Shown piece by piece: positions 8,525-52,816 of a stretch of DNA of 64,000 nucleotides. The position numbers and the translations under genes are program-made. The DNA lies in assembly GCA_026387335.1 (NCBI GenBank), contig JAPLLX010000001.1, positions 170,620 to 234,619 on the forward strand, given 5' to 3'. The stretch's first letter is position 1, and every line of letters starts with the position of its first letter. The stretch is from Candidatus Omnitrophota bacterium (GTDB lineage: Bacteria > Omnitrophota > Gorgyraeia > Gygaellales > Profunditerraquicolaceae). The notes under the pieces are model-generated. The model ran no database searches, had not been told where the DNA came from, and saw only the letters and a program-made list of their open reading frames with translations.

Positions 8525-9919
8525 ATGCATAAACTAAACAAGCGGGTTCGTATTGCTTATTTTTTTGTAGATATCGCGTTTATAATCATTTCATTTTATG
8601 AGGTATTCAAGCTTAACTTTGGTTTAATTCAATTTAATCCGGAGGATATCAAGTTATATCTGTCAGTTTACTTCTTTTGGGGCGTTGTTCTGGTTTTTTT
8701 ATTACATAACGCTTATCTTCACCATACCAATCGTTATCTAAGTGTCTCAGGAGAATGGTTGAAGGTAGGTAGATGTGTTTTATTGGCTTCTATTTTAACC
8801 GCATTGTTTATCTTTGTCCTTAAGTTAGATATTTTCTCACGCGCGGTTTTTATAGAATCAAGCTTTGCGTTATTATTAAGCCTTTCTGCTTGGAGAACGA
8901 TAAAACGGCTCTGTGTCCGTTATTTAATCCGAAAGGGATATGCTAATTATAATATTTTGATAATAGGCGCCGGAAATGCGGGTTTAGCGCTTGCGGATGA
9001 AACTAAAGCCTTTCCTTACTTAGGGATAAAGGCAGTCGGATTTCTGGATGATGTAAGGGTGGGTGAAAGAAACGGAATTAAGATTTTAGGCAAAATTAAC
9101 GATATTGAACAGGTTGTGAAAAATTATTTTATTGATGAAATTTACGTTACTATTCCTTCTGAGCGTAGAATTTCCGGAGAGATAATCCAAAAAGGTACAA
9201 AATTAGGCAAAACGGTGAGGGTTGCTGCCGAGCATTTTGGTCTACCATACAGCCAAGTAAGGCTAAATTATATCGGTGCTATCCCTTTATTGACTTATTT
9301 TGAGGAAAGTGGATACAGGACAAGAAACATGGTTAAGAGATTGTTGGATATTTTTATCTCCGTTTCAATTTTGGTATTATTTCTGCCTTTATTTGTATTA
9401 ATTGCCTGTTTAATTAAAATAGAAAGCTACGGACCAGTATTTTATATCTCAAAACGAAGTGGAAGAAAAGGGGTAATTTTTGATTTTTATAAGTTCCGTT
9501 CCATGATTAAGGGAGCGGATAGTCATAAGGAATCCTTAAAGAGTAAATCTGAAGTAGAGGGACCGATTTTTAAAATCCGTAACGACCCTCGTTTGACTAA
9601 AGCGGGTAGATTTTTACGTAAATACAGCTTAGATGAATTGCCCCAGTTAATAAATGTTTTAAAAGGCGACATGAGTTTGGTTGGTCCCCGTCCTTTTCCC
9701 GTTGAAGAAAGCAATAATATAGAATATAAGCATATACCGCGATTGAATATCCGGCCGGGGATTACAGGTTTAGCGCAAATAAAAGGCAGGTCGGATTTAA
9801 AATTCAGCCAGTGGATGCGTTGGGATATTTGGTATGTTAAGAATTGGTCTTTAGGTTTAGACATAAAGATACTTTTTTGGACCATCCCGGTAGTCTTTAA
9901 GGGGAAGGGAGCGTATTAA
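8525..9919 (+). CDS. polyprenyl-phosphate hexose-1-phosphate transferase (WbaP/exopolysaccharide sugar transferase family)
   Basis: N-terminal TM helices and a C-terminal catalytic domain carrying the signature DELPQLINVLKGDMSLVGPRP. Confidence 0.85.
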   Translation: MHKLNKRVRIAYFFVDIAFIIISFYEVFKLNFGLIQFNPEDIKLYLSVYFFWGVVLVFLLHNAYLHHTNRYLSVSGEWLKVGRCVLLASILTALFIFVLKLDIFSRAVFIESSFALLLSLSAWRTIKRLCVRYLIRKGYANYNILIIGAGNAGLALADETKAFPYLGIKAVGFLDDVRVGERNGIKILGKINDIEQVVKNYFIDEIYVTIPSERRISGEIIQKGTKLGKTVRVAAEHFGLPYSQVRLNYIGAIPLLTYFEESGYRTRNMVKRLLDIFISVSILVLFLPLFVLIACLIKIESYGPVFYISKRSGRKGVIFDFYKFRSMIKGADSHKESLKSKSEVEGPIFKIRNDPRLTKAGRFLRKYSLDELPQLINVLKGDMSLVGPRPFPVEESNNIEYKHIPRLNIRPGITGLAQIKGRSDLKFSQWMRWDIWYVKNWSLGLDIKILFWTIPVVFKGKGAY

Positions 9920-46305: not shown

Positions 46306-48546
46306 ATGGCGCTTCTATCTACTATTTTTATTATCGGTTTAAGCGGCTTAATCGCTCAGATTATTATCCTGCGCGAGCTTCTGGTCAATTTTTCCGGTAA
46401 TGAGTTAACCGTAGGCATTATTCTGGCTAACTGGGTTATTCTGGAAGCCGCCGGTGTTTTTTTCCTCGGAAAAGCTATAGAGAGGATTAAGAATAAATTA
46501 AGCGTTTTTATAGCTTTAAATATACTCTTCGCGTTGATCCTGCCGTTTACTATTTACTTTGCGCGCACGTTTAAGGCGTTTACAGGCCTACCTTTTATAG
46601 AAGCGGTTTCTTTACCCGTTATATTCTTCTCTTCGTTGGCGATAATCTTTCCAGCGGCATTTTTACATGGCGCGCTCTTTAGCTGCGCTTGTAAGGAACA
46701 TTCCTTAATAACCAACAACTCTGAACGCTCAATAAGGATGGTTTATGCCTGGGAGGCCCTTGGGACAATATTCGGCGGGATAATTCTGGTATTTTTACTC
46801 ATACCGCGCCTGACTTCATTTCAAATAGTGCTTATTATTTCCTTCCTAAATATTATTTTGTCCATTTTTCTTACCCGGGCTAAGAAAAGATATTTTTATC
46901 TGTGCGTTATTACGTTTTTATGCGTTTTATTTTCCGCTAAAGCCGCGGGTTATTTGCAAAGAGCCTCAATTGATAAACAATGGCAGGGCCAGTTTATCCT
47001 GGATTATCGGAATTCTAATTACGCTAATATTACCGTAACCAAAAAACTTAACCAGTACACCTTTTTCTATAACGGAGTGCCGGCGATTACTACTCCTTTC
47101 CCGGATAAGCAATTTGTCAGCGACTTCGCCAACTTACCGTTATTATTTCATGACTCGCCGCAGGATATCCTGATTGTAGGTTCCGGTATCGGAGGCTTAA
47201 TCGCAGAGTCCCTGAAACACCCCCTCAAAAGCCTGGATTATGTTGAAATTGACCCCTTGATTATCAAGTTACTTAAAGAATACCCTACGTCTTTAAGCGA
47301 AGCTGAGCTCGCTGACAGCAGAGTAAATATTATTAATACCGACCCCCGGCTGTTCTTAATGACCAGCAAAAAATCTTACGATGTGATTTTGATAGGGCTA
47401 TCGGCTCAAGCGGATTTATCCAGTAACCGGTTTTTTACGGAAGAGTTTTTTAAGAGGGCTAAGATGAGACTAAATCCCAAAGGTATAATCGCTTTGTGGA
47501 TGCCAGGTTCATTGACCTACCTGAGCAGTGAGTTAAAAGATCTGAATAACTGCGTATGGAATAGTTTAAGGCTTTCTTTTAAATATACGCGCGTCATTCC
47601 TGGAGATTACAACATATTTATCGCTTCTGAGGCAGACGGGATAATGCTGGTTAATCCTACTTTATTATCCGAGAGGCTAATGAAGCGCGGTGTCGCGCAG
47701 GGGATACTCATTCCGGATTATCTTCAAGAGCGCTTAAGCCAGAGGTGGCTGGATTGGTTTAATCAGGAACTTAGGTTAGCCACAAAGGAGAGTAATCAGG
47801 ACCTGCGGCCCGCGGCAGTATATGCAACCTTAAAGATTATAAATAAGAAGTTCTCTCCCGGATTTAGCCGGGTATTTAGTTATCTTGGCTATGTTAATTT
47901 AAAATTATTATTCCTTATAATTTTTCTGATGAGCTTAGGGGTAATGGTTGTCTCTAAAATTAAACGTGATCCAAAAATCCCGGTTGCCTACGCGATTTTT
48001 ACAACCGGATTTTTCGGAATGCTGGCTAACCTGCTTTTATTATTTGCTTACCAGGTTTCTTACGGGTGCTTGTATCAGATGATAAGTATATTAACCGCGG
48101 TATTTATCTTTGGAGCCGCAATAGGGGTTATTTTACTTTCTCCGGCGTTTAGCCGGCTAAAGAAACCGGGATCAATTTTAATTATAATGGAAGCCTTAAT
48201 AATTAGTTTTATATTTATACTGGGGTCAGTTATTACCAGAGGCAACGTTATTTTAAACAATTCAGCTGCAATTTTCTATTGCCTATTGTTTATTGCGGGC
48301 TTACTTATGGGCCTGGAATTTCCTTTAGCCGCCAAGATATACCTAAAAGATAATAGGGATAACGCAGGCGCTGTTTCAGGGTTGCTTTATGCCAGCGATC
48401 TTATTGGCGGGTGGTTAGCCGGAATATTCGGGGGAGTCGTATTTTTGCCCGTGTTAGGCTTTTTTAATACCTGCCTGCTTATGGTTATGTTGAAGCTGAG
48501 CAGCCTTCTTGTGTTAATAAATAGGGACAGCGACCGTTTTTTCTAA
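46306..48546 (+). CDS. membrane protein fused to a spermidine-synthase-like (aminopropyl/methyltransferase-fold) domain
   Basis: N-terminal and C-terminal TM bundles flank a SpeE-like domain (ILIVGSGIGGL ... VEIDPLIIKL). Confidence 0.65.
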   Translation: MALLSTIFIIGLSGLIAQIIILRELLVNFSGNELTVGIILANWVILEAAGVFFLGKAIERIKNKLSVFIALNILFALILPFTIYFARTFKAFTGLPFIEAVSLPVIFFSSLAIIFPAAFLHGALFSCACKEHSLITNNSERSIRMVYAWEALGTIFGGIILVFLLIPRLTSFQIVLIISFLNIILSIFLTRAKKRYFYLCVITFLCVLFSAKAAGYLQRASIDKQWQGQFILDYRNSNYANITVTKKLNQYTFFYNGVPAITTPFPDKQFVSDFANLPLLFHDSPQDILIVGSGIGGLIAESLKHPLKSLDYVEIDPLIIKLLKEYPTSLSEAELADSRVNIINTDPRLFLMTSKKSYDVILIGLSAQADLSSNRFFTEEFFKRAKMRLNPKGIIALWMPGSLTYLSSELKDLNNCVWNSLRLSFKYTRVIPGDYNIFIASEADGIMLVNPTLLSERLMKRGVAQGILIPDYLQERLSQRWLDWFNQELRLATKESNQDLRPAAVYATLKIINKKFSPGFSRVFSYLGYVNLKLLFLIIFLMSLGVMVVSKIKRDPKIPVAYAIFTTGFFGMLANLLLLFAYQVSYGCLYQMISILTAVFIFGAAIGVILLSPAFSRLKKPGSILIIMEALIISFIFILGSVITRGNVILNNSAAIFYCLLFIAGLLMGLEFPLAAKIYLKDNRDNAGAVSGLLYASDLIGGWLAGIFGGVVFLPVLGFFNTCLLMVMLKLSSLLVLINRDSDRFF

Positions 48547-48583
48547 TACTATATACGCGGAAAAATGGTCGCTGTCCCTATTT
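48519..48583. repeat. hairpin repeat element copy B (about 95% identical to copy A, loop included)
   Basis: The left arm is identical. The right arm has 2 mismatches. The element encodes the last 9 codons and stop of the 746-aa gene. Confidence 0.8.
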
Positions 48584-48624
48584 AATCTATTGTTTTTGGG
48601 TATTGCGGTGGTATAATAAATTTT

Positions 48625-49233
48625 GTGACTGATTTAGATTTCGTCCAGAAATGCGTCAAAGGGGACAGCCAATCCTGGGATGAATTCTTAAAACGTTATT
48701 CCCGCCTGATATATAAGTATATCCACAGCGTATTAAACTCTAAGAACATTCTTGCCTCTAACCCTGACCATATAGACGATATATTTCAGGGTTTTTTCTC
48801 TTCTTTGATCCAAGACGACTATAAAAAACTAAAAAGCTTTAGAGGTATAAATGGCTGTAGCCTGGCCAGCTGGTTAAGGCTGCTTACTATAAATTTCACC
48901 CTGGATTATCTGCGTAGGGTTAAACCGGCATTTTCTCTGGAAGCTGAGAATGACGAAGGTTTTAGCCTTAAGGATACACTAGCTGATGGTTCAATTTCCG
49001 TGCCTGAGCTGCTTGCCCAGGAAGAAATGTTAAAGAGCCTGGAGGATTGCCTGGACGGTTTAAGCCTGCAAAGCAGGTTTCTTATAGAGTTAAATATTAA
49101 TCAAGGCGTAAAGCTGGAGGCCTTAAAAGATTTATTTAAACTTTCCCGCGGGGCCATAGATATGCAGAAGAAGAGGATTATTGATAAACTAAGAGAGTGT
49201 TTTAGGAGTAAAGGTTTTAAGTTAGATTTTTAA
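48625..49233 (+). CDS. ECF-type RNA polymerase sigma factor (sigma-70 family)
   Basis: Region 2 and region 4 architecture, 202 aa. GTG start lies 8 nt downstream of TGGTATAAT (extended -10 at 48609-48617). Confidence 0.7.
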   Translation: MTDLDFVQKCVKGDSQSWDEFLKRYSRLIYKYIHSVLNSKNILASNPDHIDDIFQGFFSSLIQDDYKKLKSFRGINGCSLASWLRLLTINFTLDYLRRVKPAFSLEAENDEGFSLKDTLADGSISVPELLAQEEMLKSLEDCLDGLSLQSRFLIELNINQGVKLEALKDLFKLSRGAIDMQKKRIIDKLRECFRSKGFKLDF

Positions 49234-49272
49234 GGCGCTTGCGTCTATTATACTAAGGAGGGGACTATCAAT

Positions 49273-49977
49273 ATGCCGGATAAGTTAGAGGTTTTAATTA
49301 AAAAAGTTTACAACAGATGGAAGAGGCGCTCTAGGGTTAACGATGCTCATCCTGATGAAGAGGCCATGGCTTGTTTTTTTGATGGTTGCTTAAGCTATGA
49401 AGAAAGCGAGCGGATAAAAGCCCATTTAGCTGCTTGTGATGATTGCGCTCATCTTTTTGCTCTTAGCTTAAACGCTGAAAGTTCCGCTGAATTAAAAGAG
49501 GTGCCTGAAGAGCTGCTAAACAGGGTGCTGGAGTTATTGAAATCAAATGATAAGCCGTCGATCCTGGATATTGTTTTACGGCTCAAAGAGAATATGCTTG
49601 AGATAATCAATGCCAGCGGAGATATTCTTTTAGGCCAGGAGTTAATTCCCGTACCGCTATTACGCAGCCGTAAAATCCGGGATTTTAAGGAGGAAGTCAC
49701 TATATTCAAGGATTTTAAGAATATTCGATTAGAGGTGCGGATAGAAAATAAGGATGGAAAATTCTTTAACTTAATGACCAGGGCTATTTTTAAGCCTGGC
49801 GCGCTACCCTTTAAAGGCTTAAGGGTTACTCTCTTTAAGGATGGTTTGGAATTAGAATCCTACCTTAGCGATTCGGGTTCGGTTAATTTTGAGCATGTTG
49901 CCTTGGGTAAATATGAGTTAGAGCTGAGCAACGATAGCGGTAAGTTCGCTTCAGTGGTTTTAGATATTAAGGCCTAA
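49273..49977 (+). CDS. soluble zinc-binding (ZAS-type, HxxxCxxC) anti-sigma factor candidate
   Basis: HLAACDDC motif. No TM segment. RBS AAGGAGG. Confidence 0.55.
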   Translation: MPDKLEVLIKKVYNRWKRRSRVNDAHPDEEAMACFFDGCLSYEESERIKAHLAACDDCAHLFALSLNAESSAELKEVPEELLNRVLELLKSNDKPSILDIVLRLKENMLEIINASGDILLGQELIPVPLLRSRKIRDFKEEVTIFKDFKNIRLEVRIENKDGKFFNLMTRAIFKPGALPFKGLRVTLFKDGLELESYLSDSGSVNFEHVALGKYELELSNDSGKFASVVLDIKA

Positions 49978-49985
49978 ATAAAAGA

Positions 49986-52205
49986 ATGCCAGAAGAAAAG
50001 ACCCTTATTTTGGAGATTAGCCGCCAGGTTGACCTGCTGAAGATGAGCCTTTTTGAGGCCAACGACTCTCCGGCAACCCTAAAGCAATATAGCCAGCACA
50101 AAGTCGATCTTAGCCAGATTGATCGGCTCTGCGCCGAGGTCACTTCAGTATTAAATAAGGTTGTCTTACAGGATAGCGCTTTAATTAGAAGCTTACAGAA
50201 AACAGGACAGGCCCTCTGGGATCATCTTTTAAGCCGTTCGGTTAAAGAGAGGTTAAAATCATCCCTCTCTGCCAACTTAGCGCTGACCATTGATGAAGAG
50301 CTGATTAATATTCCCTGGGAACTGCTTTATGATGGAGATAATTTTCTCTGCCTGAAATTTAACTTAGGAAGGCTGGTTAGGACGAAAAGCCAGGCTAGCC
50401 GGGTGCAATACCGCTCGGCTACGCATATTTTTAAGATGTTAATTTTGGCCAATCCGACCAATGATTTAAAATGCGCTTATCAGGAAGGCCTAAGCATTAA
50501 AAACCAGTTTGACCGTAAGCGTTCAAACATACACGTTGATTTTAAATCCACAAATATAGATAAGTTATACCTAAAGAAGAACCTTTGCGACTATGACATT
50601 ATACATTTTGCCGGGCATGGCGAGTATGACCAGTATAACCAGAAAAATAGCGGATGGGTCTTAAGCGACGGGAAATTTAATATACAGGATATTTTAAGCA
50701 TGGGGCAGGCTGTTTCTTTGCCGGCGTTGGTTTTTTCTAATGCCTGTAATTCGGCGCAAGGTAACGCCAGCGGTATAATTGAGGCGGATTATCAGAAGAG
50801 ATATTATTCCTTTGCTTCGGCCTTCCTTTTTTCAGGAGTCAGGCATTACATCGGCTCAATACGCAAGATTGATGATTTCGCCAGCCTGGCTTTCGCCAAA
50901 GAATTTTATCACCATTTAATCTTCGGGAAATCTGTCGGTGAAAGTTTGCGTTTAAGCAGGATCAAGTTAGTCCGGGATTATGGGCTCATCTCTTTACATT
51001 GGGCGAATTACCTGCTTTATGGAGACCCGGCTTTTTTTCTCTTTAAGCCCAAAGACAAAGCGTTTAAGAGCAGGGATAAAATAAGGGTAAGGCTAAACCG
51101 GAAATGGCTGGCCGGGTTTTTAATTTTAGCCGCCGGCATAGGGTTAGGTCTATGTCTCTTTATGTTTTTACCTACGCTTAATCCAAATGCCTACCGTTTA
51201 TTCTTGAAGTCCAGGGATTTATTTAGCAAAGGCGATAACCAGCAAGTTATCCAGCTGGCTGACCGGATTATTAAGAAAGACCCGGACTTCCGGGATATTT
51301 ACCGGTTGCTTGGCGATACTTACCTTAGGCTGGGGAATAAGGAGAGGGCCTTAAAATATTATTTTGACTACGCGCTTTTAGCGGAGAAGAAGCGGGATTT
51401 TAAGTGTTTAGCCGCAGGCTATATTGAAATTGGCTGGCTTTACCAACTGCAAGGTGAATACCTTAAGGCAGCTGATTTTTATAATAAGGCCCTGGAATTG
51501 GCGCGCAAGAACAATGATAAATTAAATGAAGCCGTAGCCATGCGTAAGCTGGCTGTATGGCATATAGATAAGGATGAAAACGATTTGGCCTTAAGTCTTT
51601 TAACCAAAAGCGCCGAGATTAACCGCGAAAGGCAGTATTCTTATGAGCATCGCTATAACCTGGCTTGCGATTATTTTGATATCGGATTGGTTTTTTCCAA
51701 TAAGGAGGATTTTAAAGCCGCGGATGAGTTTTACCGCAAAAGCCGGGTGATTTTTGAGAGACTTAAAATTAAGAATGGTTTAAGCGATTATTATTTTAAT
51801 CTTGGGGAATTGTGTTTATTTGAAAAACAGTATCAAAAGGCCAAAGATTATTACTTAGCCGGGCTAAGGATAGATTTGAGCCAGGGGAATAAATTGAACC
51901 TGCCTTCGGATTATAACATGATCGGCGAGCTGTATCTTGAGATGGATATGCTACTGGAAGCTAAACTTGCCTTGGAAGAGTCGCTAAATGCCGCAAAAGA
52001 GATCCAGGCGCAGCCGGAAGTGGCCGCGGCGTATCATAATTTAGGTTTGTTGTATAAGAAACTGGGAAAAAAGAATAAGGCCAAGGAATTCTTGCGGCTG
52101 GCGCAGGAAATTTACAGTATTATTGACCCCTTGGCTTATAAAGAGGTAAAAAATGAGATTTTAGGCCTGGATGGGGCAAACCTGCCGGACTTGACAAAGC
52201 CTTAA
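49986..52205 (+). CDS. CHAT-domain (caspase-like) protease fused via one TM helix to C-terminal TPR repeats
   Basis: His in HFAGHGEYD and Cys in FSNACNSAQG form the catalytic dyad. TM helix FLILAAGIGLGLCLFMFL. Several TPR repeats follow. Confidence 0.75.
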   Translation: MPEEKTLILEISRQVDLLKMSLFEANDSPATLKQYSQHKVDLSQIDRLCAEVTSVLNKVVLQDSALIRSLQKTGQALWDHLLSRSVKERLKSSLSANLALTIDEELINIPWELLYDGDNFLCLKFNLGRLVRTKSQASRVQYRSATHIFKMLILANPTNDLKCAYQEGLSIKNQFDRKRSNIHVDFKSTNIDKLYLKKNLCDYDIIHFAGHGEYDQYNQKNSGWVLSDGKFNIQDILSMGQAVSLPALVFSNACNSAQGNASGIIEADYQKRYYSFASAFLFSGVRHYIGSIRKIDDFASLAFAKEFYHHLIFGKSVGESLRLSRIKLVRDYGLISLHWANYLLYGDPAFFLFKPKDKAFKSRDKIRVRLNRKWLAGFLILAAGIGLGLCLFMFLPTLNPNAYRLFLKSRDLFSKGDNQQVIQLADRIIKKDPDFRDIYRLLGDTYLRLGNKERALKYYFDYALLAEKKRDFKCLAAGYIEIGWLYQLQGEYLKAADFYNKALELARKNNDKLNEAVAMRKLAVWHIDKDENDLALSLLTKSAEINRERQYSYEHRYNLACDYFDIGLVFSNKEDFKAADEFYRKSRVIFERLKIKNGLSDYYFNLGELCLFEKQYQKAKDYYLAGLRIDLSQGNKLNLPSDYNMIGELYLEMDMLLEAKLALEESLNAAKEIQAQPEVAAAYHNLGLLYKKLGKKNKAKEFLRLAQEIYSIIDPLAYKEVKNEILGLDGANLPDLTKP

Positions 52206-52220
52206 AAAATATGTTATACT
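52191..52220 (+). promoter_or_regulatory. sigma-70-like promoter TTGACA-18-TATACT upstream of the riboswitch
   Basis: Read directly. The -35 lies within the last codons of the CHAT gene. Confidence 0.45.
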
Positions 52221-52257
52221 TTTTTAGTTGATATTTGACAATTTAAACCTGACCTAA

Positions 52258-52345
52258 TGAAAAGGCTAACCAGCAGCAATGCTGGGGCGCAAAACTTCCG
52301 GACCCGCCAAAGGCGGGCTAGCGGGGTTGCCAAAAGGAGCTAACC
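52258..52345 (+). ncRNA. c-di-GMP-I (GEMM) riboswitch aptamer candidate
   Basis: GGCUAACC, a 4-bp hairpin with a GCAA tetraloop, GGGGCGCAAAAC, the P3 hairpin CCCGCC-AAAG-GCGGG, and CUAGCGGGGUUGCC. This closely parallels the Vc2 pattern GGCAAACC-[GNRA hairpin]-GGGACGCAAAGCC ... GGUAGCGGGGUUACC. Confidence 0.6.
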
Positions 52346-52372
52346 CTAAAATTAATCCTTTTAGGGTTTTTT
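52342..52372 (+). terminator. intrinsic terminator (riboswitch expression platform)
   Basis: AACCCTAAAA-ttaatcc-TTTTAGGGTT followed by TTTTTG. It overlaps the 3' strand of the aptamer. Confidence 0.6.
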
Positions 52373-52556: not shown

Positions 52557-52609
52557 AAATAGGGACAGCGACCGTTTTTCTATGGGAAAAACGGTCGCTG
52601 TCCCTATTT
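52557..52609. repeat. hairpin repeat element copy C (same 23-bp arms, 7-nt loop)
   Basis: Read directly. It lies immediately after the small ORF stop. Confidence 0.8.
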
Positions 52610-52618
52610 AAAGTGGCC

Positions 52619-52646
52619 TTGAAAATCAGGGCTGATGTGTTATACT
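52619..52646 (+). promoter_or_regulatory. sigma-70-like promoter TTGAAA-16-TATACT
   Basis: Read directly. The predicted TSS is at the GGCAAGGGG stem. Confidence 0.45.
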
Positions 52647-52733
52647 TAGTTTAGGCAAGGGGTAAACTACCAGCGGGCAGGCAATGCCCGGTAAAAAACA
52701 AAGAAAAATAGAATTCCCCTTGCCAGTTTTATT

Positions 52734-52769
52734 TTCCCCGTATTGAAAAAATGCGGGGATTTTTTTTAA
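52734..52769 (+). terminator. strong intrinsic terminator/attenuator in the leader of the BNR-repeat gene
   Basis: CCCCG-tattgaaaaaatg-CGGGG followed by T8. Confidence 0.6.
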
Positions 52770-52816
52770 GTTAGATTTCTCTACCTCCCGCGTCTATTGA
52801 AGCAGGAGGTGGTAAA

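Follow-up and report, generated by a model that had tools for sequence, protein, structure and literature searches.

Caspase-like CHAT proteases are wired to sigma factors in two characterized systems. Craspase, of type III-E CRISPR, comprises Cas7-11 (gRAMP), Csx29, Csx30, Csx31 and the sigma factor CASP-sigma/RpoE; its TPR-CHAT protein Csx29 cleaves Csx30 and thereby relieves the inhibition of this extracytoplasmic function (ECF)-like sigma factor (PMC10028731). DdvA of Myxococcus xanthus is a zinc-binding anti-sigma (ZAS) protein fused to a periplasmic TPR-CHAT domain (PMC11506125, PMC6061681). Here we analyzed a 64,000-nucleotide stretch of DNA from a Candidatus Omnitrophota bacterium (contig JAPLLX010000001.1), hereafter the window, in which an ECF sigma factor, a soluble anti-sigma protein and a CHAT protein with one transmembrane (TM) helix and a TPR array are encoded in a row on the plus strand. 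The original prediction, made from the letters of this DNA, had put these genes forward as a candidate module of proteolytic sigma activation. All three open reading frames (ORFs) are present and co-oriented, and their products match the expected profiles. Judged by gene order and protein comparison, the trio is a functional module that is conserved among Omnitrophota, where hundreds of species have it, and that occurs in other phyla too; proteolytic activation of the sigma factor appears to be the mechanism that fits it best. We suggest that the external domain senses a signal, that the cytoplasmic CHAT domain then cuts the linker of the anti-sigma factor, and that the freed sigma factor drives transcription of a gene for a BNR-type beta-propeller protein and of the anti-sigma and CHAT genes. 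We put the probability of this whole chain at about 0.5.

The original prediction knew of no characterized ECF activation mechanism in which a caspase-like protease is wired to a sigma/anti-sigma pair, a statement that Craspase and DdvA make outdated. Protease-gated control of anti-sigma factors, with precedents for the CHAT-to-sigma link, is already known; as a wiring for envelope signaling it is not yet known. The literature that we searched describes no pairing of a soluble ZAS anti-sigma factor with a CHAT protein anchored in the membrane and no such module in Omnitrophota, and the ECF classification paper mentions neither Omnitrophota nor caspase-like neighbors.

The module resembles Craspase in joining a cytoplasmic CHAT His/Cys protease to a soluble sigma inhibitor with a single cut in a flexible loop, a cut that is predicted at the locus studied here. 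Likewise, the catalytic histidine and cysteine are 43 residues apart in both proteases (H615/C658 in Csx29, H211/C254 here). The module differs in having no Cas7-11, CRISPR RNA, Csx30 or Csx31; neither genes for these proteins nor a CRISPR array were found beside the CHAT gene, whose neighbors in the annotated orthologous loci and in the ORF layout of the window are housekeeping genes. Its predicted trigger is an extracytoplasmic domain acting across the TM helix, whereas Craspase responds to binding of target RNA. The domain order is CHAT-TM-TPR rather than the TPR-CHAT of Csx29, and the inhibitor is a ZAS protein with a beta-sandwich, unrelated to Csx30. The candidate residue before the cut is an arginine; in Csx30 the cut falls between residues 427 and 429. 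Furthermore, the module is part of the core genome and not of a defense island.

The DdvS/DdvA pair is similar in that an ECF sigma factor is held under a zinc-binding anti-sigma domain functionally coupled to a membrane-spanning module of TPR and CHAT domains, and in that proteolysis by CHAT is the proposed activating step. DdvA, however, is one polypeptide made of a cytoplasmic ZAS domain, a TM helix and a periplasmic TPR-CHAT domain, whereas here ZAS and CHAT are separate proteins. The periplasmic CHAT domain of DdvA lacks a three-helix motif, and self-cleavage followed by intramembrane proteolysis by RseP has been proposed for it. Here, by contrast, CHAT is predicted in the cytoplasm and TPR outside, in the order CHAT-TM-TPR, and no site-2 protease step would be needed. 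Canonical regulated intramembrane proteolysis (RseA with DegS and RseP; RsiW) also turns an outside signal into proteolysis of an anti-sigma factor encoded beside its ECF sigma factor, which is then released. There the anti-sigma factor is a membrane protein cut by two proteases, first outside and then within the membrane, whereas here it is soluble, with no TM helix, and a single membrane-anchored protease would cut it in the cytoplasm. A further difference is that no ECF-type motif was found ahead of the sigma gene of the module, which would therefore lack positive autoregulation.

The CalpL-CalpT-CalpS system likewise combines a protease, an anti-sigma protein that is soluble and a sigma factor of the ECF-like kind, with activation through anti-sigma cleavage; its protease, in contrast, belongs to the SAVED-Lon family, is cytosolic, is activated by cyclic oligoadenylate and is linked to type III CRISPR defense. 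ECF54 sigma factors have CHAT-domain neighbors and no anti-sigma factor (PMC8999054). ChrR-type proteins (RpoE-ChrR of Rhodobacter; PMC8999054) share with the anti-sigma factor of the module their solubility, the N-terminal zinc-binding anti-sigma domain and the beta-rich C-terminal domain, and ChrR is reported to be proteolysed upon induction. The C-terminal domain of ChrR is a cupin, whereas the one here is an Ig/FN3-like sandwich, and ChrR is not known to have a dedicated CHAT partner.

Conservation of the module in Omnitrophota and beyond

We examined the order of the three genes by tblastn in 80 related loci, of which four are interrupted by a contig end. In the remaining 76 informative loci, which come from different species and are 52-72% identical, the sigma, anti-sigma and CHAT genes follow one another in the same order and on the same strand without exception (76/76), the sigma gene always lying 5' of the anti-sigma gene. 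Scanning a single genome per GTDB species for a sequence pattern revealed relatives in at least 302 species genomes at 52-100% identity, almost all labeled Omnitrophota. Homologues of the CHAT-TM-TPR protein number more than 700; the best 120 are all ~730 amino acids long and 57-100% identical, and a 100% identical match is annotated from a metagenome-assembled genome of Candidatus Omnitrophica. A profile search with this full-length protein returned generic TPR proteins only. An exhaustive profile search with the anti-sigma factor yielded 126 clusters at E<1e-30, nearly all 225-245 amino acids long (uniformly about 235), and 522 clusters at E<1e-10. The gap from the sigma to the anti-sigma gene is typically 27-50 nucleotides. 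Between the anti-sigma and CHAT genes it is mostly 4-12 nucleotides, and the CHAT gene has a Shine-Dalgarno motif of its own in just 9 of 77 loci, indicating that the two genes are translationally coupled.

Outside this set, we examined the contexts of eight anti-sigma family members only 20-30% identical to the window protein. All eight adjoin a CHAT gene of the same subfamily, so that the linkage on which the original prediction depends is found at great distance as well. In a Nitrospinota lineage, sigma and anti-sigma are followed by a CHAT-TM-trypsin-like protein of 851 amino acids and then by OmpA and alpha-2-macroglobulin. Other lineages encode CHAT-TM-CsgG-like proteins followed by CsgG/LpoB-like and FadL-like genes, and further ones carry CHAT proteins with no recognized C-terminal domain. 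One context is ordered CHAT-TPR, sigma, anti-sigma, and another lies on a short contig that ends within the CHAT N-terminus. At one locus (L089) the sigma gene is 2.6 kb away, and the anti-sigma and CHAT genes still overlap or lie within 10 nucleotides of each other. Four divergent CHAT partners that we aligned are 36-40% identical to the N-terminal 380 residues of the window protein and retain HxAGH and SNAC; they are devoid of signal peptides, and each has just one TM helix, at about residues 407-421, whose flanking charges are biased in the way described below. The sigma factors of the divergent lineages are full-length homologues, 27-40% identical, and co-diverge. A homology search with P0387 gave two matches only and no taxonomy for the CsgG-type lineage.

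Trypsin-like and CsgG-like domains are typically extracytoplasmic. On this comparison, the constant core is the sigma factor, the anti-sigma family and a membrane-anchored CHAT subfamily, while the outer domain (TPR, trypsin-like or CsgG-like) appears exchangeable. Because the core is constant while the C-terminal domain is swapped, we read the module as a modular sensor-transducer.

The neighborhoods of the divergent modules vary. In Nitrospinota (L084-L086) the module adjoins OmpA and an alpha-2-macroglobulin of 1837 amino acids; in L087-L090 it adjoins a CsgG/LpoB/Glucodextran_B-like protein, a FadL (Toluene_X) channel and a giant protein with PKD repeats. The lineage-specific motif GCAAGG-N15-CGTCTATT precedes some of these envelope-related neighbors in L084-L090. 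This suggests that in each lineage the module controls a different envelope or surface function.

The original prediction had left room for a defense-like system. An anti-phage or abortive-infection sensor, whose external TPR array would detect a phage component and whose sigma factor would switch on defense genes, would be in keeping with the fact that both characterized CHAT-sigma systems are linked to defense, and the sigma factor does match the type III-E CRISPR sigma model weakly (E=7.7e-5). That match, however, reaches 22.7 bits against a cutoff of 100. In a PADLOC scan no defense or CRISPR model was matched by the sigma factor, the anti-sigma factor or the BNR protein, and the CHAT protein gave weak matches only, to a generic TPR model and to BovA (19.4 bits), and to no CHAT-type defense model. 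The setting argues against defense as well. In two distant orthologues whose neighborhoods were annotated with Pfam, an H+-pyrophosphatase (H+-PPase) lies upstream, and downstream come the BNR propeller, thioredoxin, a CbiA/DRTGG protein, Pta, acetate kinase (AckA), DJ-1, PanD and peptide deformylase; on the downstream side, the ORFs of the window have sizes that agree with this gene order. Both in distant species and in the window, the locus is thus embedded in a conserved block of housekeeping genes, and its breadth of inheritance is unlike that of patchy mobile islands. Moreover, the only local targets of the sigma factor would be the anti-sigma/CHAT pair and the secreted BNR propeller. The locus is vertically inherited core genome and not a mobile defense island, and we consider a defense function very improbable.

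The CHAT protease, the anti-sigma factor and a candidate cleavage site

The CHAT domain matches Pfam PF12770 from end to end (E=5.3e-34, 118.4 bits, cutoff 24; residues 71-347 on profile positions 1-289 of 289). The original prediction described its His/Cys dyad as intact. Alignments show that H211 (in FAGH) and C254 (in SNAC) are kept in 79/79 orthologues, as they are in the four divergent partners mentioned above, and the protease looks active by its sequence. Across 78 orthologues the protein has one hydrophobic segment (median 19-residue hydropathy 2.3) and no N-terminal signal peptide. The 15 residues flanking this segment hold on average 5.9 lysines and arginines on the N-side versus 1.5 on the C-side. 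Because of this positive-inside bias, and because a 370-residue N-terminal domain would be hard to export without a signal peptide, the CHAT domain is predicted to be cytoplasmic and the TPR array to lie outside the membrane. AlphaFold2 models the TM helix and the TPR array confidently.

The anti-sigma factor matches Pfam zf-HC2 (PF13490) at 26.6 bits (cutoff 22.2), with zinc ligands H26 and H51-x3-C55-x2-C58. We aligned 120 full-length cluster representatives with the window protein (n=121): H51, C55 and C58 are each kept in 120/121 sequences, and position 26 is His or Cys in 120/121. The HxxxCxxC motif and the lack of a TM helix reported by the original prediction are both borne out, as no hydrophobic segment was found, and over 77 orthologues the maximal 19-residue hydropathy has a median of 1.06 versus 2.3 for the CHAT TM segment. 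With CHAT in the cytoplasm and the anti-sigma factor free of TM helices, the two proteins would share a compartment. In the AlphaFold2 model of the anti-sigma factor, residues 3-68 form a helical N-terminal domain that carries the zinc ligands. Residues 89-132 form a linker of low confidence (predicted local distance difference test, pLDDT, below 50), and residues 141-232 form a confident eight-strand beta-sandwich (pLDDT ~88). The sandwich is not assignable to a known family: a Foldseek search against the PDB gave only weak, generic Ig/FN3/SoxZ-like matches, the best at E ~2e-3.

Despite its low pLDDT, the linker is more conserved among orthologues than any other part of the protein. Within it R131 is invariant (121/121) and is the sole invariant residue; it is preceded by L, F, V or M and followed by S, G, A or N, while the linker around it drifts and takes insertions and deletions. 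Arginine specificity is known from separase, metacaspases and gingipain. We read the hydrophobic-Arg-small motif in this flexible linker as a candidate cleavage site for a clan-CD protease, with R131 as the residue before the cut.

The zinc site invites another explanation, in which the anti-sigma factor is a self-contained ChrR/RsrA-like sensor of redox or metal conditions, through its zinc site or its beta-sandwich, and the CHAT-TM-TPR protein is a co-transcribed target or a membrane-tethering scaffold that cleaves nothing. ChrR binds zinc through H6, H31, C35 and C38, its first histidine lying 25 residues before HxxxCxxC. The spacing here, (H/C)26-x24-H51-x3-C55-x2-C58, is conserved, and the first ligand alternates between His and Cys as it does in zinc-binding anti-sigma factors. 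The N-terminus weakly matches the RsrA and ChrR models, the CHAT gene lies in an operon behind a sigma-type promoter as a regulon member would, and soluble ZAS factors that work by conformational change have been described (PMC8999054). However, the family models score far below their cutoffs (ChrR 16.9 versus 124.5 bits, RsrA 20.6 versus 62.5 bits). Furthermore, self-sensing leaves unexplained why anti-sigma and CHAT are paired in 76/76 and 8/8 contexts even as the domain fused to CHAT is exchanged, why the catalytic dyad is invariant, and why a single arginine is invariant in an unstructured linker. We therefore regard it as unlikely.

Still less likely is that CHAT acts on the sigma factor or on some other substrate, for instance its own linker or proteins of the envelope, in which case it would be a negative regulator or parallel effector of the kind proposed for the peptidase/CHAT neighbors of ECF54. 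DdvA has been proposed to cut itself, and the sigma factor has a fairly long, poorly conserved inter-domain region (about residues 100-140) that might be cut. Yet here an anti-sigma factor is present and is the gene most tightly coupled to CHAT, by overlap or within 10 nucleotides, even at the locus where the sigma gene lies 2.6 kb off; moreover, conservation is weak in the sigma inter-domain region but strong in the anti-sigma linker.

Predicted promoters of the module and the BNR gene

With 59.2 bits against a cutoff of 42.9, the sigma factor matches TIGR02937, the NCBIfam model of the ECF superfamily, over residues 17-192 of 202. It has regions 2 and 4 and lacks regions 1 and 3, which is the profile of ECF (group 4) sigma factors. 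The Pfam models for region 2 (20.2, cutoff 24) and region 4 (12.6, cutoff 24.1) stay below threshold, indicating a divergent ECF member. Thus, among the domain assignments of the original prediction, CHAT and zf-HC2 exceed their Pfam cutoffs, whereas the sigma regions fall short of theirs and are recovered by TIGR02937.

The original prediction had called the sigma gene possibly leaderless. The extended -10 element that it placed ahead of the GTG is present, TGGTATAAT, with 7 nucleotides between it and the start codon, which is ATG in 68/74 orthologues. A -10 hexamer with at most one mismatch lies 3-10 nucleotides before the start (mostly 6, 7 or 9) in 72/73 loci, and 64 of these 72 hexamers carry the TG extension. 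A Shine-Dalgarno-like motif precedes the sigma gene in 2/73 loci, versus 65/76 for the anti-sigma gene. Because the -10 element is so near the start and the Shine-Dalgarno motif is nearly always absent, the sigma mRNA is very probably leaderless and transcribed by the housekeeping sigma factor from an extended -10 promoter conserved across Omnitrophota. A similar layout is seen at other long ORFs of the window, with starts at 8525, 43119, 2970, 17679, 32523 and 58867; leaderless starts may be fairly common in Omnitrophota and not unique to the sigma gene.

The motif GTTAGATT-N13-CGTCTATT occurs exactly twice in the window (core expectation 0.11), once before the anti-sigma gene (candidate promoter P1) and once before the BNR gene (candidate promoter P2), and no further site was found in the window with up to three mismatches. 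The exact core of P1 is kept in 66/76 loci, and its spacer is exactly 15 nucleotides in 69/69 P1 sites. Counting both promoters, the GTTAGA-to-CGTC spacing is 15 nucleotides in 104/105 instances, with CGTC ~27 nucleotides before the start codon. A scan of both strands of 1.17 Mb of related loci gave about 120 sites with at most one core mismatch, all of which precede an anti-sigma or BNR orthologue. P2 is kept ahead of BNR orthologues however far these lie from the CHAT gene, and an intrinsic terminator (52735-52759, followed by T8) lies directly upstream of it in the window, as terminators often do in related loci. Divergent lineages show the same geometry and -10 box with another -35 box, GCAAGG-N15-CGTCTATT, before the anti-sigma and neighboring genes. 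We infer that the motif is the cognate promoter of the sigma factor.

The BNR protein has an N-terminal segment resembling a signal peptide, and its PDB relatives are a BNR-repeat glycosyl hydrolase and Ycf48. In about 50 of the 80 loci its gene is found on the same strand further downstream, and the P2 motif is always present where the region is covered. Since the BNR gene shares a sigma-type promoter with the anti-sigma gene, we count four genes in the unit and consider the BNR gene a candidate output of the sigma factor. Because synteny extends over the entire downstream block, the linkage could be mere synteny; we rejected this since P2 is kept even with 0.06-6 kb of intervening DNA. At one locus (L063) a small GIY-YIG-like ORF lies between the BNR promoter and the BNR gene.

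The P2 spacer is complementary to the Shine-Dalgarno region of the BNR gene (52778-52816), with a mean duplex energy of -12.4 kcal/mol versus -8.4 kcal/mol for shuffled sequences (n=35). Apparent compensatory changes in this pairing are seen at L026, L039 and L069. Transcripts reading through from upstream would have the BNR Shine-Dalgarno masked, and transcripts started at P2 would not. We rejected the possibility that the motif is an RNA element instead of a promoter: the P1 copy gives no pairing signal, terminators often lie directly upstream, and the -35 box changes with the sigma lineage. The promoter reading is preferred, with anti-Shine-Dalgarno pairing as an extra layer.

The original prediction had set a hairpin upstream and a cyclic di-GMP (c-di-GMP) riboswitch downstream as the boundaries of the module. 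Both elements are present, but these boundaries are wrong, as the BNR gene beyond the riboswitch belongs to the unit and the riboswitch is present in just 3 of 10 related loci, where it is called as the c-di-GMP-I-GGC variant; we therefore rejected it as a part of the module. The riboswitch's own sigma-70-like promoter (52191-52220) overlaps the CHAT gene at its end, and its terminator (52342-52368) is followed by a T run; no plus-strand ORF of at least 50 amino acids lies between it and the next hairpin. The upstream hairpin is probably the terminator of the preceding gene and lies outside the module.

Several further observations concern the surrounding sequence. The gene upstream (46306-48546) encodes a 746-amino-acid protein in which a multi-pass MFS-like membrane domain is fused to a spermidine synthase (NF037959, 53 bits, cutoff 40). 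Conservation beside the module does not extend to this gene, in whose place other species have the H+-pyrophosphatase. The arm of the upstream hairpin (~20 bp, TAGGGACAGCGACCGTTTTTC and its complement) occurs in two copies, at 48522-48581 and at 52560-52606 in the CHAT-BNR intergenic region. Hairpins of the form GGGAC...GTCCC with T-rich tracts also lie ahead of the sigma promoter in many other species, and look like a phylum-typical terminator or repeat element. At 52619-52768, in the CHAT-BNR intergenic region, lie another sigma-70-like promoter (TTGAAA-16-TATACT with TG) and, behind it, an RNA of ~110 nucleotides with a long-range stem GGCAAGGGG ... CCCCTTGCC and the strong terminator before P2. 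No Rfam family matches this RNA, which is conserved in the closest relatives (L002, L003, L004, L006 and L007) and could be either a small RNA or a leader of the attenuator type that ends just before the BNR promoter. Beyond the riboswitch, a low-threshold Rfam scan of the CHAT-BNR region gave hairpin noise only (miRNA and snoRNA models). Hairpin-forming insertions of ~60-100 nucleotides with ends like AACTTATG...CATAAGTT are found in intergenic regions of the module at ten loci (L010, L020, L027, L029, L032, L033, L042, L062, L063 and L068), where they break up sigma/anti-sigma or promoter/BNR spacers; they look like miniature mobile repeats.

Features of the module and its surroundings. Positions are those of the window.
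Feature	Position	Strand	Remarks
Long hairpin ("element B")	48522..48581 (about)	+	Sequence reading; overlaps stop codon of upstream MFS/spermidine-synthase gene
Predicted housekeeping-type promoter of sigma gene	48590..48617	+	-35-like TTGTTT 48590-48595, 16-nucleotide spacer, extended -10 TGGTATAAT 48609-48617
ECF-type sigma factor, 202 amino acids, GTG start	48625..49233	+	TIGR02937
Candidate cognate ECF promoter P1, GTTAGATT-N13-CGTCTATT	49221..49249	+	Overlaps last sigma codons; CGTC ~28 nucleotides before anti-sigma ATG
Soluble anti-sigma factor, 234 amino acids	49273..49977	+	zf-HC2 match; AlphaFold2 model
Codons of L130-R131-S132-R133, candidate cleavage site (P1 residue = R131)	49660..49671	+	R131 invariant in alignment
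CHAT-TM-TPR protein, 739 amino acids	49986..52205	+	Pfam CHAT, hydropathy, AlphaFold2
His211; Cys254	50616-50618; 50745-50747	+	CHAT catalytic dyad
TM helix, ~residues 372-395	51099-51170	+	Hydrophobic segment ~377-395; AlphaFold2 helix 372-394
TPR array, ~residues 400-728	51183-52169	+	Many TPR matches, residues 405-730
c-di-GMP-I riboswitch aptamer	52254..52334	+	Rfam RF01051, 64.7 bits, gathering score 35
Candidate cognate ECF promoter P2, GTTAGATT-N13-CGTCTATT	52770..52798	+	5' of BNR gene
BNR/Sortilin-type beta-propeller protein, secreted, 516 amino acids	52817..54367	+	Sortilin-Vps10 1e-13 and BNR matches

A proposed one-protease sigma switch and its meaning

We propose the following mechanism. 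At rest, the zinc-binding domain of the anti-sigma factor would hold the sigma factor; that the two proteins bind, and that the sigma factor is thereby inhibited, is predicted from the adjacency of their genes in all 76 loci. A signal at the external TPR domain would activate the cytoplasmic CHAT domain through the single TM helix. CHAT would then cut the anti-sigma factor in its exposed, conserved linker, most likely after Arg131, and release the sigma factor. Free sigma factor would transcribe the BNR gene as output and would yield more anti-sigma factor and CHAT, providing negative feedback and reset. Such a switch would make do with one protease where membrane-bound anti-sigma factors usually undergo intramembrane proteolysis in two steps. 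We favor this mechanism because the genes are strictly linked, because the linkage survives deep divergence, because the dyad is invariant, because the linker carries R131, because CHAT and the anti-sigma factor would share a compartment, because the promoter motif is rigid, and because Craspase provides a precedent.

Several points weigh against it. The invariant arginine and the conserved linker could serve binding to the sigma factor, to CHAT or to the beta-sandwich, and not cleavage. With its ChrR-like zinc site, the anti-sigma factor could respond to redox or metal stress alone, and a CHAT protein in a sigma-dependent operon could be a target and not a regulator. The CHAT core (residues 133-296) is modeled poorly by AlphaFold2 (pLDDT <50), and we draw no conclusions from it on the active site or S1 pocket. 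Likewise, the CHAT domain has no detectable relative among PDB sequences, the only matches being chance-level ones to Shiga-toxin B. The promoters are assigned by their motif, and the complementarity of the P2 spacer to the Shine-Dalgarno region shows that the same DNA is also read as RNA in some transcripts. More generally, cleavage, binding and transcription are each deduced from sequence.

The broader claim is that the module represents a widespread, multi-phylum class of trans-envelope signaling modules in which a membrane-anchored CHAT protease is the transducer, carries an exchangeable outer sensor, cleaves a soluble ZAS anti-sigma factor at an invariant arginine and so frees an ECF sigma factor, as a one-protease alternative to site-1/site-2 proteolysis. 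It would stand as a housekeeping counterpart to the CHAT-sigma wiring in Craspase and DdvA, to which it is possibly related by evolution. We hold this claim tentatively, at slightly less than an even chance.

ECF sigma factors are one of the main routes by which bacteria signal across the envelope, and many ECF groups are uncharacterized. If our proposal is true, it would add a mechanism in which a caspase-like protease relays the signal across the membrane and itself makes the cut in a soluble anti-sigma factor. It would also mean that the CHAT-to-sigma logic, so far linked to CRISPR and defense only, serves core physiology throughout a phylum and beyond. The proposal offers concrete experimental targets, namely R131, H211 and C254, and the 29-nucleotide promoter. 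A protease-gated sigma switch with exchangeable sensors could, like Craspase, become a part for synthetic biology. Omnitrophota are uncultured and poorly understood, and a unit shared by hundreds of their species, with a proposed promoter and secreted output, provides a way into their envelope biology.

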